Source: Alphaproteobacteria bacterium UBA2966 (GTDB lineage: Bacteria; Pseudomonadota; Alphaproteobacteria; UBA2966). Taken from it: DNA of 64,000 nt. The notes under the pieces are model-generated. The model searched no databases, was not told the origin of the DNA, and worked only from the letters and a program-made list of their open reading frames with translations. This document shows, one piece after another, positions 7,155 to 60,783 of the stretch. The position numbers were made by a program, and so were the translations under genes. The stretch's first letter is position 1. Each line of letters begins with the position of its first letter. The stretch lies in contig DEBC01000130.1 of assembly GCA_002348365.1 (NCBI GenBank), forward strand, positions 15,224 to 79,223. Direction: 5' to 3'.

Positions 7155-7442
7155 ATGGCACGACGTTGCGAATTGACAGGAAAGTCCGTGTTGTCGGGCA
7201 ACAATGTAAGCCACGCGCACAACAAGACGCGACGGCGCTATTTGCCGAATATTCAGCGCGTGTCGATCTTCAGCGAGGTATTGGGCCGCCCCATTCGTCT
7301 CAAGGTGGCGGCGAGCGCCATCCGCACCGTGGAGCACGCTGGTGGTTTGGACAAGTTCCTCTCAGACGCCAAGGAAGACAAGCTTTCGGCTAACGCCAGG
7401 CGCGTGCGGCGCGAGATCATCAAGGCTCAGGCTGCCAACTAG
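7155..7442 (+). CDS. rpmB: 50S ribosomal protein L28
   Basis: [37 protein letters not shown]... A Shine-Dalgarno AGGTGG lies 5 nt upstream of ATG 7155. Confidence 0.9.
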
Positions 7443-57259: not shown

Positions 57260-57334
57260 GGGCGCGTAGCTCAGCGGGAGAGCACCTCGGTGACATCGAG
57301 GGGGTCGTAAGTTCAATCCTTACCGCGCCCACCA
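57260..57334 (+). tRNA. tRNA-Val (anticodon GAC), CCA encoded
   Basis: GGGCGCGTAGCTCAGCGGGAGAGCACCTCGGTGACATCGAGGGGGTCGTAAGTTCAATCCTTACCGCGCCCACCA. Cloverleaf with 7-bp acceptor stem, anticodon stem CCTCG/CGAGG and loop gTGACat. Confidence 0.9.
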
Positions 57335-57370
57335 TTTTCTCCATTGCGGCATTGTTGAGAGGAACCCGAC

Positions 57371-58492
57371 ATGGTTGACCTTGCTGTCGCGACTGCGGAC
57401 GGGTCCCCTGATCATTCCCTCACCATTCGCGGCCTGAAGGTTCGACCTGTCGACGTGCCCCTGGAAGACCCGGTGGTCACAGCGAGCGGTACGGTCTCCT
57501 CGGCACCGCTGGTCCTGGTCGACCTGCTGACCCGGGAAGGCATCACCGGCCGCGGGTACATCTTCACCTATTCGCCGGCCGCGCTGCTGCCCACTGCGCG
57601 GCTGGTTCAGAACATGGCTGCCATGATCGAGGGAGAGTCAGTGGCGCCGCACGATCTCGATCGGCTCCTGCAGCAGCGCTTTCGCCTGCTCGGCGCGGAG
57701 GGTCTGACGGGTATGGCGATGGCGGGCATCGACATGGCGGCGTGGGATGCGCTGGCGCAAGCGCGGAACATGCCGCTCGCGGAGTTGCTGGGTGGTGCCT
57801 GCAAGCCGACCCCGTCCTACTACAGCGCAGGCATGATTGATGAGCCCGAGGCCGAACGTCTCATCGAGAAGTCACTTGGCATGGGATTCCGGGCCTTCAA
57901 GGTCAAGGTCGGCTATCCCAGCGTGGAAGCGGATCGCCGTATCATCCGCTTCATACGACGGCTGGTGGGGGACGAGTTTGAGCTCATGATCGATTTCAAT
58001 CAGAGCCTGGACGCACCCGAAGCCGAATCCCGCACCCGGGCACTCGCGTCGGAGAACCTGACCTGGATCGAGGAACCGCTGCTTCACCATGACTTCGCCG
58101 GACACAGCGCCGTGCGCCGAAAGGTCAAGACGCCAATTCAGATCGGAGAGAACTGGTGGGGCATACCCGATATGACCAAGAGCCTTGCGGCAGGTGCTTC
58201 CGATCTCTGCATGCCCGATGCGATGAAGATCGGTGGTGTCACGGGCTGGATGAAGGCGGCGGCGCTGGCAGGCGCCCACGGCATGCCCATGTCTTCACAT
58301 CTGTTCGTCGAGGTTAGCGCTCATCTGTTGGCTGTAACACCGACAGCGCATTGGCATGAATACCTTGATTTGGCCAAGCCCGTCCTTCAGCGCCCTCTGG
58401 AGATCCGCGATGGCGATGCCATTCCCTCGGATGAACCGGGTACCGGGGTCGATTGGGACGAGGATTCCGTGGGGCGCTATCTGGTCGACTGA
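57371..58492 (+). CDS. mandelate racemase / muconate lactonizing enzyme (enolase superfamily) protein
   Basis: 373 aa; capping domain plus TIM-barrel with metal ligands (KVKVG...DFNQS...EEP...). Confidence 0.8.
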   Translation: MVDLAVATADGSPDHSLTIRGLKVRPVDVPLEDPVVTASGTVSSAPLVLVDLLTREGITGRGYIFTYSPAALLPTARLVQNMAAMIEGESVAPHDLDRLLQQRFRLLGAEGLTGMAMAGIDMAAWDALAQARNMPLAELLGGACKPTPSYYSAGMIDEPEAERLIEKSLGMGFRAFKVKVGYPSVEADRRIIRFIRRLVGDEFELMIDFNQSLDAPEAESRTRALASENLTWIEEPLLHHDFAGHSAVRRKVKTPIQIGENWWGIPDMTKSLAAGASDLCMPDAMKIGGVTGWMKAAALAGAHGMPMSSHLFVEVSAHLLAVTPTAHWHEYLDLAKPVLQRPLEIRDGDAIPSDEPGTGVDWDEDSVGRYLVD

Positions 58493-58878
58493 TTCGGAGC
58501 GGCGTTACGCATTAACGCTGCTCGGGCGGTTACCCGGAAGCAGATTGAACACGCTCCGGCGGGCGAACGCCGGGGGTGTCACCCGCCTTTGACGGGAATC
58601 CAACCCATAGAATCCCTTAATCTTAAACGGTTGCCACAGTTTTCCGTGAGGGCTTCTAGAATCCGTCCCGGAGTCAGGCTGCTCCCACAACGATGCAGGA
58701 TGGAGAGGCCGGGACTTCAACAGATCCCGTCAGTTACAAATTCATACAACTCACTACGCTGCAGACAAACTTCTCGAACATCGAATCGCTTAAATCGTAC
58801 GTGGTTGGTTTGGTAACCCGGATGGGGCGCACATTTGATCCGGGAGCTTTTGTCAGAGATTGGTGGTGAAGGGAGTTT

Positions 58879-59223
58879 GTGGACATGGGACGGGAAAGGA
58901 CGATCAACAGGACGGTATCGCAGTACATTGGAGTGTTGATCTTGGGTGCCATCGTGGGAACGGTCATGGCCATTGTGGGATCTGTCACGGCCATCGCGAC
59001 GGCCAATGCACATGTAGCGATTTATGCGACGTCCATTCCGGCGACGTATGAGGCCGCGCGTCTTGACGTCGTGGCGGTCATGGAGCCGTCGAACTGGTGG
59101 GATGATTTCGAGCTGGCTCTGCCGAATCTCGAGCTGCGCCCGGAGGATCCAAATCTGATGAATTCTCCGGTCATCGAATTGAGCAACGGCATGGAAATGG
59201 TCGGCACAAACGTCGCTGAATAG
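58879..59223 (+). CDS. hypothetical small membrane protein P1 (glycine-zipper-like TM plus W-x-D-D-F-ELALP motif)
   Basis: 114 aa, MDMGRERTINRTVSQYIGVLILGAIVGTVMAIVGSVTAIATANAHVAIYATSIPATYEAARLDVVAVMEPSNWWDDFELALPNLELRPEDP... AAGGGAG Shine-Dalgarno 9 nt upstream; lies in a lower-GC patch. Confidence 0.5.
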   Translation: MDMGRERTINRTVSQYIGVLILGAIVGTVMAIVGSVTAIATANAHVAIYATSIPATYEAARLDVVAVMEPSNWWDDFELALPNLELRPEDPNLMNSPVIELSNGMEMVGTNVAE

Positions 59224-59570
59224 ATCGGCTCATCACGACGGTCAAAGTGCCCGCCGCCGGCCGAAGTGGTGCACACGGACGGAACTCAACAGTCTTCCTA
59301 TGAGTTCTTATAGGTTAGGCACTCCTACCGCATGTAGCAGGGATTTCCTGACGCTCTACAATATGATGTGGATCTGGCCGATCGCTCTCGTGGATTTGAG
59401 CGCCAGAAACAAATCGTTACATGTCGAAACCCGCCAGAAATCCGTAACGTCGTACGGTTAGTCAGCTCAGACTCATGTGATGGGGTGCCTCCCACAGCCA
59501 TATGGGGGACCGCTCGCCTGCAACGGCGAATGTGTTCGGTGAGGGAGAGAGCTGAGGACAGGAGGGGAAG

Positions 59571-59843
59571 ATGCGTCACCCGTTATTCGGATATGCGATC
59601 GCGGTTGCAATCGGCGCCGCTGTGGGTACGGGCGCTGCCGTACTGGGGCCGAACCCAGTCAAAACCTGTGTGGTCAACCCGGTTGCTGCGTCTGAGGCCG
59701 ATCCGGTGGCTCACTGGCAGGACGAGTTGGAACTCGCTCTGCCCGATGACCTGCCGGCAACACAGAAGCATGCCACGCTTGCCGGCTCGGGTGCTGACGA
59801 TTTTCTGGGCCTGGAATTGGCAGGCGACTCCAAGGGTCACTAA
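59571..59843 (+). CDS. hypothetical small membrane protein P2, paralog of P1
   Basis: 90 aa, MRHPLFGYAIAVAIGAAVGTGAAVLGPNPVKTCVVNPVAASEADPVAHWQDELELALPDDLPATQKHATLAGSGADDFLGLELAGDSKGH. AGGAGG Shine-Dalgarno upstream; shares the glycine-zipper segment and the HWQDELELALP motif with P1. Confidence 0.5.
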   Translation: MRHPLFGYAIAVAIGAAVGTGAAVLGPNPVKTCVVNPVAASEADPVAHWQDELELALPDDLPATQKHATLAGSGADDFLGLELAGDSKGH

Positions 59844-59910
59844 GCAAGCTGCAGTGGCGAGGTGCGCTACCGCGGCGCCTCGCTGCGCGCCGAAGGCGAT
59901 CGTTCTGCCA

Positions 59911-60618
59911 TCATCTCAGCGAGACTGCGTTTGGCTTGTCCCTCGGTATCGAATTTTCGTCTGCCAGCCATGCTGCCAGATGGCTTTTCACTTCGGGCCA
60001 TTCATCGTCGAGGATCGAATGCCAGGGGGTATCCCGGCTCATGCCTTTAACGATCATGTGGTTGAAAAAGATGCCCTGGAACCGGAAGCCGAGGCGTCGA
60101 GCGGCCGCCCGGGATTTGGCATTCAGGGAATTGCACTGCCATTGCATGCGCCGGTAGCCGAGGTCGGTCATGGCATGATCGAGCAGAAGGTAAAGGGCTT
60201 CTGTGCCGCCCCGGGTTCTTTGCAGCGATGGCCCAAACCAGATGTAGCCGATCTCAATCACGCCAGCCTTGGGGTGAATGTCGAGATAGCTCGCCATGCC
60301 GCAGGCGAGCCCCGTTTCCTCGGAGCGAATTGCATAGGTCACCCGTTCGAACATGGCCGCGTTGTTCTCCAGCTATGTCTTGAATGAGTCGACGTCCGCC
60401 CATGGCCCGTCTGGCAGAAAATCCCAGATCCCGCGTGCCTTATCGGACCCGTGGGAGGAGTGGTACAGCTCATCGGCGTGAACCGGCGGATTGAGCGGTT
60501 CCAGTCGGACGTGCCGGCCTTCAACAGGTGTGCGAGCCGAAATGAGGCCGCTTGGCGGGGTCTCGACGGTAGCCCCCGACAACGGTCGGGGAAAGGGAAC
60601 TTCCTGATCTGGTTTCAT
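59911..60618 (-). pseudogene. RimJ/RimL-like GNAT acetyltransferase interrupted by in-frame TAG at 60373-60375
   Basis: ORFs 60373-60618 (...GRHVRLEPLNPPVHADELY...WADVDSFKT*) and 59911-60354 (MFERVTYAIRSEETGLACGMASYLDIHPKAGVIEIGYIWF...RRLGFRFQGI...) are in one frame, continuous as ...DSFKT*LENNAAMFERV... Confidence 0.7.
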
Positions 60619-60783
60619 GCCATCTTCGTATCAGAAATTGGACCTGAAGGCCTCGATTCAGTTGCCATCCGCCACCGCTGGCGGTCGCCCGGATCCGACG
60701 TCCGGGGACCGTGGAGTTGACAGAATTCCTCCGCATACCTATGTTTCGCGCCGGTCTGGAGCCATCAAAGCCATTTGAATGCC

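Follow-up and report, generated by a model that had tools for sequence, protein, structure and literature searches.

Two tandem paralogous genes for candidate small glycine-zipper membrane proteins in an uncultured marine alphaproteobacterium

The stretch of DNA discussed here, hereafter the window, comprises 64,000 nt of contig DEBC01000130.1 from Alphaproteobacteria bacterium UBA2966 and contains two small genes on the plus strand, P1 and P2, which lie one after the other between a gene of the enolase superfamily (MR_MLE) and a pseudogene of a GNAT acetyltransferase. P1 (58885..59223) encodes a protein of 112 aa if translation begins at an ATG codon, or of 114 aa if it begins at the preceding GTG (58879-59223). 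In this protein a basic N-terminus precedes a single hydrophobic helix at residues 14-40; the motif NWWDDFELALP occupies residues 70-80, and the tail is acidic. P2 (59571..59843) encodes 90 aa, with a hydrophobic helix at residues 5-26 and the motif HWQDELELALP at residues 48-58. A first, sequence-only reading of the region had credited both open reading frames (ORFs) with good Shine-Dalgarno sequences, and both are indeed present in the ORF list and in the sequence: the ribosome-binding site of P2, AGGAGG (59560-59565), is 5 nt upstream of its ATG, and that of P1, AAGGGAG (58869..58875, plus strand, read in the sequence), is 9 nt before the ATG at 58885 and 3 nt before the GTG. The start of P1 has nevertheless been moved from the GTG proposed in that reading to the ATG, which is the likelier one because its spacing to the Shine-Dalgarno sequence is 9 nt, against only 3 nt for the GTG, and because the gene callers of other assemblies choose it.

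P1 and P2 are real coding genes. Codon usage was scored as a log-likelihood ratio trained on 30 long ORFs of the window, a set slightly contaminated by a 339-aa ORF that is not a gene. This ORF (59368-60387, plus strand) is a mechanical frame that runs across the P2 leader, across P2 in another frame and along the antisense strand of the GNAT pseudogene. P1 and P2 scored 0.347 and 0.224 bits/codon, respectively, compared with 0.28 ± 0.13 for genes and -0.25 ± 0.10 off frame; random-like codon usage, which had been named beforehand as an argument against a real pair, was checked in this way and native usage was found in both. For each of the two the annotated frame is the best of six, and the GC content at codon positions 1, 2 and 3 is gene-like. 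Furthermore, the frame is open in five diverged copies of the gene, the chance of a random open frame of 81-112 codons being 0.02-0.06. Coding is also supported by the good spacing of both Shine-Dalgarno sequences, by a 21-nt indel between strains that keeps the frame, and by the third-position differences in the DNA for the shared motif.

Comparison of the two protein sequences shows that P1 and P2 are, as had been proposed, true, diverged paralogues and that the motif they share exceeds chance. BLASTP aligns them over a 13-aa stretch (E=5e-4). Their Smith-Waterman score is 55, compared with 26 ± 4.7 for shuffled sequences (6 SD above), and none of 5000 shuffles was as good; when the hydrophobic segment was shuffled apart from the rest, 5 of 5000 shuffles reached the same score. 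Further support was provided by hhalign, which matched P1 to the profile of P2 and its orthologues with a probability of 94% (E=9e-8), and by a MAFFT alignment with three aligned blocks, namely Y..GA.VGT..A in the helix, xEA, and W.D..ELALP. The DNA that encodes the motif forms a direct repeat of 31 nt (repeat family D1; 59093..59123 in P1 and 59713..59743 in P2, both on the plus strand), which is 77% identical and in which five of the seven differences fall at third codon positions.

Homologues in other species were reached through gene order. Word-indexed protein searches with P1 and P2 returned only near-identical proteins, all from the same species, and when P1 was run exhaustively with phmmer against 1.84 billion representatives, the only matches were P1's own cluster and one further protein, P0003. 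The latter (E=2e-11, 25% identity) was rejected as a relative, its score being an artefact of summed repeat scores: P0003 is 1202 aa long and contains eight near-identical repeats (...SGWDSLEIGADAIMKFQPEGDF...), each of which weakly matches P1 residues 37-93. Because the direct protein searches gave nothing outside the species, GlcD was taken as a synteny anchor, and the gene order FGase, tRNA-Val, MR_MLE, variable spacer, rpmJ, glcDEF was found to be kept in related uncultured marine alphaproteobacteria. The MR_MLE gene, which in the window occupies 57371..58492 on the plus strand and matches Pfam MR_MLE_N and MR_MLE_C, precedes the small gene in every carrier genome. In three lineages, the GlcD proteins of which are 87-88% identical to that of the window, orthologues of 81-95 aa begin 360-390 nt after MR_MLE; they are found at 5155-5400 in L039 (81 aa), at 6341-6628 in L040/L041 (95 aa) and at 7263-7508 in L045/L046 (81 aa). 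These proteins start with MRHSL[IV]GYLVAVILGA..GT.TAV and contain WQD[ELQ]LELATE; they are 63-80% identical to one another and 31-42% identical to P1 and P2, with 35-42% for P2 itself. Since about 170 nt of the P2 leader, the ribosome-binding site and the start codon are conserved, P2 is the family member whose position corresponds to that of the orthologues, and P1 is an older tandem copy that has diverged; in our best reading, the control region upstream of the gene was duplicated along with it.

Other relatives lack the small gene. In L037, with a GlcD identity of 96%, the spacer between MR_MLE and rpmJ is 287 nt long and unrelated except for about 60 nt beside rpmJ; in L047 rpmJ directly follows MR_MLE and is itself followed by an IS110 element; and in L043 there is no MR_MLE and the tRNA-Val is 120 nt from rpmJ. 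As judged from these comparisons, the family is best read as restricted to one genus-level group of uncultured marine alphaproteobacteria. MR_MLE was also tried as a synteny anchor in GTDB genomes and rejected, as no match exceeded 52% identity or lay in a syntenic setting; likewise, exact 8-mer peptides of MR_MLE revealed no relative above 52% identity among GTDB species representatives. The species and its close relatives thus seem to be unrepresented among the GTDB representatives, or to be there without this contig. A scan of metagenome DNA for the pattern W-x-D-[DE]-[FL]-E-L-A-L-P was equally set aside: it gave 19 matches, about the chance number, only two of which were P1, from the same species, the remaining ones coming from a P-type ATPase and from a low-GC string without relation to the family. 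As the family does not conserve the LP, the pattern had been drawn too narrowly. The low-GC string, WNDDLEFAFP, is coding-like and recurs in short open frames on many metagenome contigs of 40-47% GC from few samples (L022, L023, L026, L027, L029, L032-L036); it is unrelated to P1 and P2 and could represent a repeated element or an exon of a eukaryote.

The alignment of P2 with its orthologues locates the conserved parts of the protein. Identity is 13-16 of 24 residues in the N-terminal helix and 7-8 of 10 in the motif, compared with 1-4 of 23 in the linker and similarly low values in the tail. Across seven sequences M1, Y8, G15, A16, G19, T20, A23, W49, D51, E54 and A56 (P2 residue numbering) are invariant. 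The N-terminal segment had been described as glycine-zipper-like, and the orthologues bear this out, since they conserve the ladder of small residues: in P2 and the orthologues a small residue stands at every fourth position (G7, A11, G15, G19, A23), with G15, G19 and A23 invariant in all seven sequences and G7 and A11 invariant in P2 and the orthologues. By this pattern the segment fits the transmembrane glycine zippers, taken as a motif class and not as a homology family. The central motif W-x-D-[DE]-[FL]-ELALP was confirmed in part. Its core is family-wide in the form W-Q-D-x-L-E-L-A, a predicted short acidic helix, whereas the LP occurs only in this species. The acidic C-terminal region (IELSNG in P1, LELAGD in P2), listed earlier as another shared feature, did not survive the family alignment; the LP and these tails are to be regarded as species-specific, because the orthologues do not conserve them.

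Only one hydrophobic stretch is present in each protein of the family; it is 20-27 aa long and has a Kyte-Doolittle value of 1.8-2.4. All the proteins are net negative, with basic residues confined to the N-terminus. AlphaFold2 models P2, at low confidence, as two helices (residues 5-24 and 46-54) with the remainder disordered, the pLDDT being 52 for P1 and 50 for P2. As in the sequence-only reading, no known family could be assigned. Pfam-A hmmscan gave no match to a glycine-zipper or other family, either for P1 and P2 at E<=1 or for P2 and three orthologues at E<=10, and NCBIfam gave no match. Nothing significant was found in PADLOC and PHROGs, where the best matches (E=0.012-0.035) covered the hydrophobic segment only; among them, a PADLOC '2TM effector' is very weak (E=0.012, 13 bits). 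In a profile search against the PDB all matches were above E=0.3, and no match was obtained in phage and plasmid records (tblastn) or in viral contigs. From these searches and the alignments above, P1 and P2 define a new family of small proteins, the general type of which is familiar and the distribution narrow.

The small genes are accompanied by a conserved upstream element. The one in front of P1 (58733..58772, plus strand; 152 nt before the ATG) contains four half-sites in a 10-bp phase, GTTACAAATT CATACAACTC ACTACGCTGC AGACAAACTT, and the promoter and leader region of P2 (59401..59570, plus strand) contains the half-sites GAAACAAATC GTTACATGTC GAAACCCGCC AGAAATCCGT at 59406-59445 and also the ribosome-binding block GGACAGGAGGGGAAG. 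In L040 the half-sites are GATACAATTT GAAACAACTC TATACGCGAC. The half-sites of the array have the form GWWACA, and none of the five copies departs from the AC(A) that recurs every 10 nt; the other arrays are at about 4987 in L039, about 6173 in L040 and about 7095 in L045. Within the window the phased pattern occurs only upstream of P1 and at 59404, and it is found in none of the loci without the small gene. The extent of conservation differs between the two genes: upstream of P1 it is limited to a block of 41 nt (58724-58764) that is common to all five copies and that aligns locally with the L040 upstream region (z=6.3, 0 of 500 shuffles), while the whole P2 leader of 170 nt (59401-59570) has its homologue in the 173 nt that precede the gene in L039 (z=16.7) and includes GGACAGGAGGGGAAGATGCGTCA, identical in all orthologues. 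When the L040 element was compared with the OmpR-binding site C1 of E. coli ompC (PMC2586830), 19 of 24 positions matched.

An inverted CGTTAC...GTAACG element had also been reported between the two genes. The pair is present (59415-59420 and 59444-59449), but its arms are only 6 nt long and are not conserved upstream of the orthologues, and the inverted repeat was rejected as a feature for this lack of conservation; the CGTTAC arm is part of a GTTACA half-site and the pair overlaps the conserved direct array. Searches for other signals in the region gave little. The sole hit of a terminator scan (59966-59985) lies outside the patch between MR_MLE and the GNAT pseudogene and is within chance expectation, and a GC-rich hairpin after P2 is no better than shuffled sequence (z=-1.28). 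Rfam at E<=1 recognized only the tRNA between 57000 and 61200, and the consensus RNA fold of the conserved leader is weak (-17 kcal/mol; covariation term, -2.6).

On the evidence of sequence comparison, the reading that we tentatively prefer, with somewhat less than even confidence, is that P1 and P2 are copies of a tandemly duplicated, genus-restricted gene for a small protein that would span the inner membrane once, extend an acidic tail into the periplasm and act via helix packing or partner binding. In such a protein the short basic N-terminus would remain in the cytoplasm, and the one glycine-zipper transmembrane helix would be retained as a membrane anchor. The tail of 50-80 residues, largely disordered and strongly acidic, would extend into the periplasm, where it would hold the amphipathic helix W-Q-D-x-L-E-L-A. 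Most likely, the zipper helix would self-associate in the membrane or pack against a larger membrane partner, and the acidic helix may dock on the periplasmic face of that partner, so that the protein would serve as a small membrane modulator or adaptor and not as an enzyme. Expression would probably depend on a winged-helix response regulator of the OmpR/PhoB type that binds the GWWACA half-sites, about 150-170 nt upstream of each start.

Several observations weigh against this reading. The searches run yielded no function-bearing homologue, domain or confident fold. No response regulator or obvious partner gene was seen beside P1 and P2, and a tblastn search of the window with an OmpR sequence gave no match. 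The resemblance of the array to an OmpR-type operator is a lead, being a likeness to one E. coli site from which binding is predicted only, and a scan for E. coli-type sigma-70 promoters found no promoter-like site in the region. Constraint on the protein is also weak (dN/dS 0.36-0.83). Substitutions within the species, pooled over both genes, amount to five nonsynonymous versus two synonymous, and two of the variants, L55P and the nonsense allele E54*, fall inside the P2 motif.

The variation on which the last point rests was observed at two levels. Among L039, L040 and L045 the dN/dS of the small gene is 0.36-0.83, compared with 0.03-0.14 for MR_MLE, GlcD and L36, and saturation of synonymous sites (dS>1.3) separates the window from the other species. 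Within the species, the strains compared (L001-L007, L019, L021) have 97-99% DNA identity to the window; among them P1 shows three nonsynonymous changes and one synonymous change, and P2 two nonsynonymous changes, including L55P, and one synonymous. The E54* allele, which leaves 53 aa of P2, is carried by three haplotypes, the longest contig among them reaching 165 kb. P1 is intact in eight of eight population variants. In P1, the hydrophobic segment contains a 21-nt tandem repeat (58951..58992, plus strand; 17 of 21 identical), one unit of which encodes VMAIVGS. Compared with L001-L005 there is an in-frame 21-nt indel at 58963-58983, one repeat unit being missing in their 105-aa P1 allele, in which the hydrophobic stretch is shortened to 20 aa, and in the family alignment the VMAIVGS unit is an insertion in this strain. 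In view of the dN/dS values, the nonsense allele and the intact P1, the family is fast-evolving and P2 seems to be dispensable in part of the population.

The proposed anchor faces one more difficulty. Cleavage by signal peptidase would be possible, because four of the five proteins carry an Ala-x-Ala site after the hydrophobic stretch (TANA followed by H in P1, AADA followed by F in L039, and TAHA followed by F in L040 and L045). The explanation that competes best with a retained helix is built on this site: the hydrophobic segment would act as a Sec signal peptide and be cleaved off, the mature products, 50-70 aa long, would be acidic, mostly disordered peptides that are secreted or stay in the periplasm, and the WQDxLELA helix would be their sole functional element, with no membrane anchor. 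The basic N-terminal region followed by a hydrophobic stretch agrees with such a signal, as does the 105-aa P1 allele with its stretch of only 20 aa. However, P2 has LGPNP where the Ala-x-Ala would stand, and the uncharged stretches, at 20-27 aa, exceed what is usual in a signal peptide, the h-region of which is roughly 7-15 residues. Moreover, no part of the protein is better conserved than the hydrophobic segment, which keeps a strict ladder of small residues that a mere export signal would not require. Export as a cleaved peptide is considered less likely than a retained anchor.

A bolder version of the membrane-anchored modulator, which we regard as doubtful, would add a history to it. P1 and P2 would belong to a recently born family of membrane 'connectors', possibly of de novo origin, that is switched on by an OmpR-type two-component regulator and gives feedback on envelope signalling or transport via the zipper and the docking helix; P1 would be diverging while the ancestral P2 is being lost by way of the nonsense allele that segregates in the population.

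The population data also suggest a more sceptical explanation, in which the ORFs are transient and have little or no function, being decaying or newly arisen frames in a spacer that accumulates junk, with the upstream DNA as the part that matters. A dN/dS of up to 0.83, the five nonsynonymous versus two synonymous changes within the species and the E54* allele in three haplotypes are in its favour, and so are the absence of the gene from the closest relative, L037, as well as from L047 and L043, the lack of any homologue beyond P1's own cluster among the 1.84 billion representatives, and a leader that is better conserved than the coding sequence. It is difficult to reconcile, however, with a frame that stays open in five diverged copies despite saturated synonymous sites (dS>1.3), with two discrete conserved blocks in the protein, with native codon usage and strong ribosome-binding sites, and with a P1 that is intact in all observed variants, and we consider it improbable.

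Glycine-zipper helices are typical of pore formers. An explanation of P1 and P2 as pore-forming or membrane-perturbing toxins, similar to type I toxin-antitoxin systems or holins and restrained in translation via the long 5' leader, could draw on this, on the tandem duplication in a variable intergenic hotspot, on the long conserved leaders, on the truncating alleles in the population and on the very weak PADLOC '2TM effector' match, but it is the least probable of all, since that match is limited to the hydrophobic segment, proteins of 81-112 aa with a strongly acidic tail are unlike the known type I toxins (a toxin under 60 aa with an antisense RNA), and no Rfam match, convincing conserved RNA structure or antisense RNA was found.

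The genomic setting of the small genes is not compositionally foreign. A fall in GC content to roughly 50%, against about 62% elsewhere, had been overstated: the patch measures 57.4% and the window 59.2%, a dip that is real but small, with 54.3% in IG1, 56.3% in P1, 55.6% in IG2 and 61.9% in P2. Other intergenic spacers of the window range from 42% to 65% GC, and the lowest 300-nt window has 51%. Nor does the patch lie beside the tRNA-Val, since the 1.1-kb MR_MLE gene intervenes between it and the tRNA-Val(GAC) at 57260-57334. The interval from the tRNA-Val to rpmJ (57335-60783 in the window) varies from 120 nt in L043 to about 4.2 kb in L039. Across L037, L039, L040, L041, L043, L045 and L047 its contents are MR_MLE, the small gene, GNAT and an IS110 element (L047), together with fragments of an rve_3 transposase and an MCP-signal protein (L039) and extra ORFs between the tRNA and MR_MLE (L041, L047). 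Because these contents differ between relatives, the spacer can be considered a variable hotspot. Thus, the comparison with relatives that had been suggested as a test for an insertion does show a variable spot between tRNA-Val/MR_MLE and rpmJ, but not one of foreign composition. A tRNA-associated island of the integrase type was rejected: no repeat of the 3' 18-30 nt of the tRNA-Val occurs between 57000 and 62000 with up to 3 mismatches, the interval has no integrase gene, the codon usage is native and the GC content is near that of the window.

The GNAT acetyltransferase pseudogene (59911..60618, minus strand) is convergent with P2 and had been correctly recognized as such: its two pieces share one reading frame, which an in-frame TAG interrupts (60373-60375, minus strand), and its C-terminal piece matches Pfam Acetyltransf_3 and Acetyltransf_1. 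In this strain alone, a 1-nt deletion near 59951 has altered the C-terminus. GNAT remnants are found in L039 (6869-7535) and L040 (7303-7544); L037 and L045 have none. In L040/L041, an ORF of 61 aa at 7163-7348 on the plus strand, antisense to the GNAT remnant, starts with a twin-arginine-like region (MHQDRTTRRSAIGIAAALVFG...AYA) and is probably spurious.

Small membrane proteins are under-annotated, and those that have been characterised often tune sensors, transporters or envelope enzymes. In this context, P1, P2 and their orthologues offer a clean case from an uncultured marine alphaproteobacterium, in which the conserved residues are defined and a candidate operator is conserved as well. 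Several natural "experiments" come with it, namely the duplication, the 7-residue indel in the transmembrane helix, the nonsense allele and the loss in a sister species, and these could guide mutagenesis. The scope is narrow, as few closely related lineages carry the family and orphan small ORFs are common, which makes the find useful and not surprising.

Among known systems, the type I toxins Hok, TisB, Ldr and ZorO are comparable in being small and hydrophobic, in their tandem duplication and long 5' leaders and in their variable intergenic sites, but P1 and P2 are two to three times larger, have an acidic tail where the toxins have a basic or aromatic one, and match nothing in Rfam. Small acidic periplasmic proteins exported by Sec share the basic N-terminus, the hydrophobic stretch and, in four of the five members, the Ala-x-Ala; in P1 and P2, on the other hand, the hydrophobic segment is long and the most conserved part, and no named family is similar. 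The Pfam glycine-zipper families (Gly-zipper_YMGG, Gly-zipper_Omp, Gly-zipper_OmpA, Rick_17kDa_Anti) and GxxxG motifs have the same small residue at every fourth position, although none of the models is matched even at E<=10 and P1 and P2 have no lipobox and one helix only. A further parallel in kind is with MgrB, SafA and MzrA of E. coli, small proteins with one membrane pass, which act as modulators of two-component sensors and are in turn under two-component regulation. P1 and P2 differ from them in having no sequence similarity to them and no Pfam or NCBIfam match, in a tail that is acidic and disordered and that lacks the conserved cysteines of MgrB, and in having no kinase or regulator nearby. 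What they would have in common is a very small size, one N-terminal transmembrane helix with a probable N-in, C-periplasmic topology, the absence of an enzymatic domain, and a stand-alone gene with its own promoter, preceded in P1 and P2 by phased direct repeats that resemble those of the OmpR/PhoB type.

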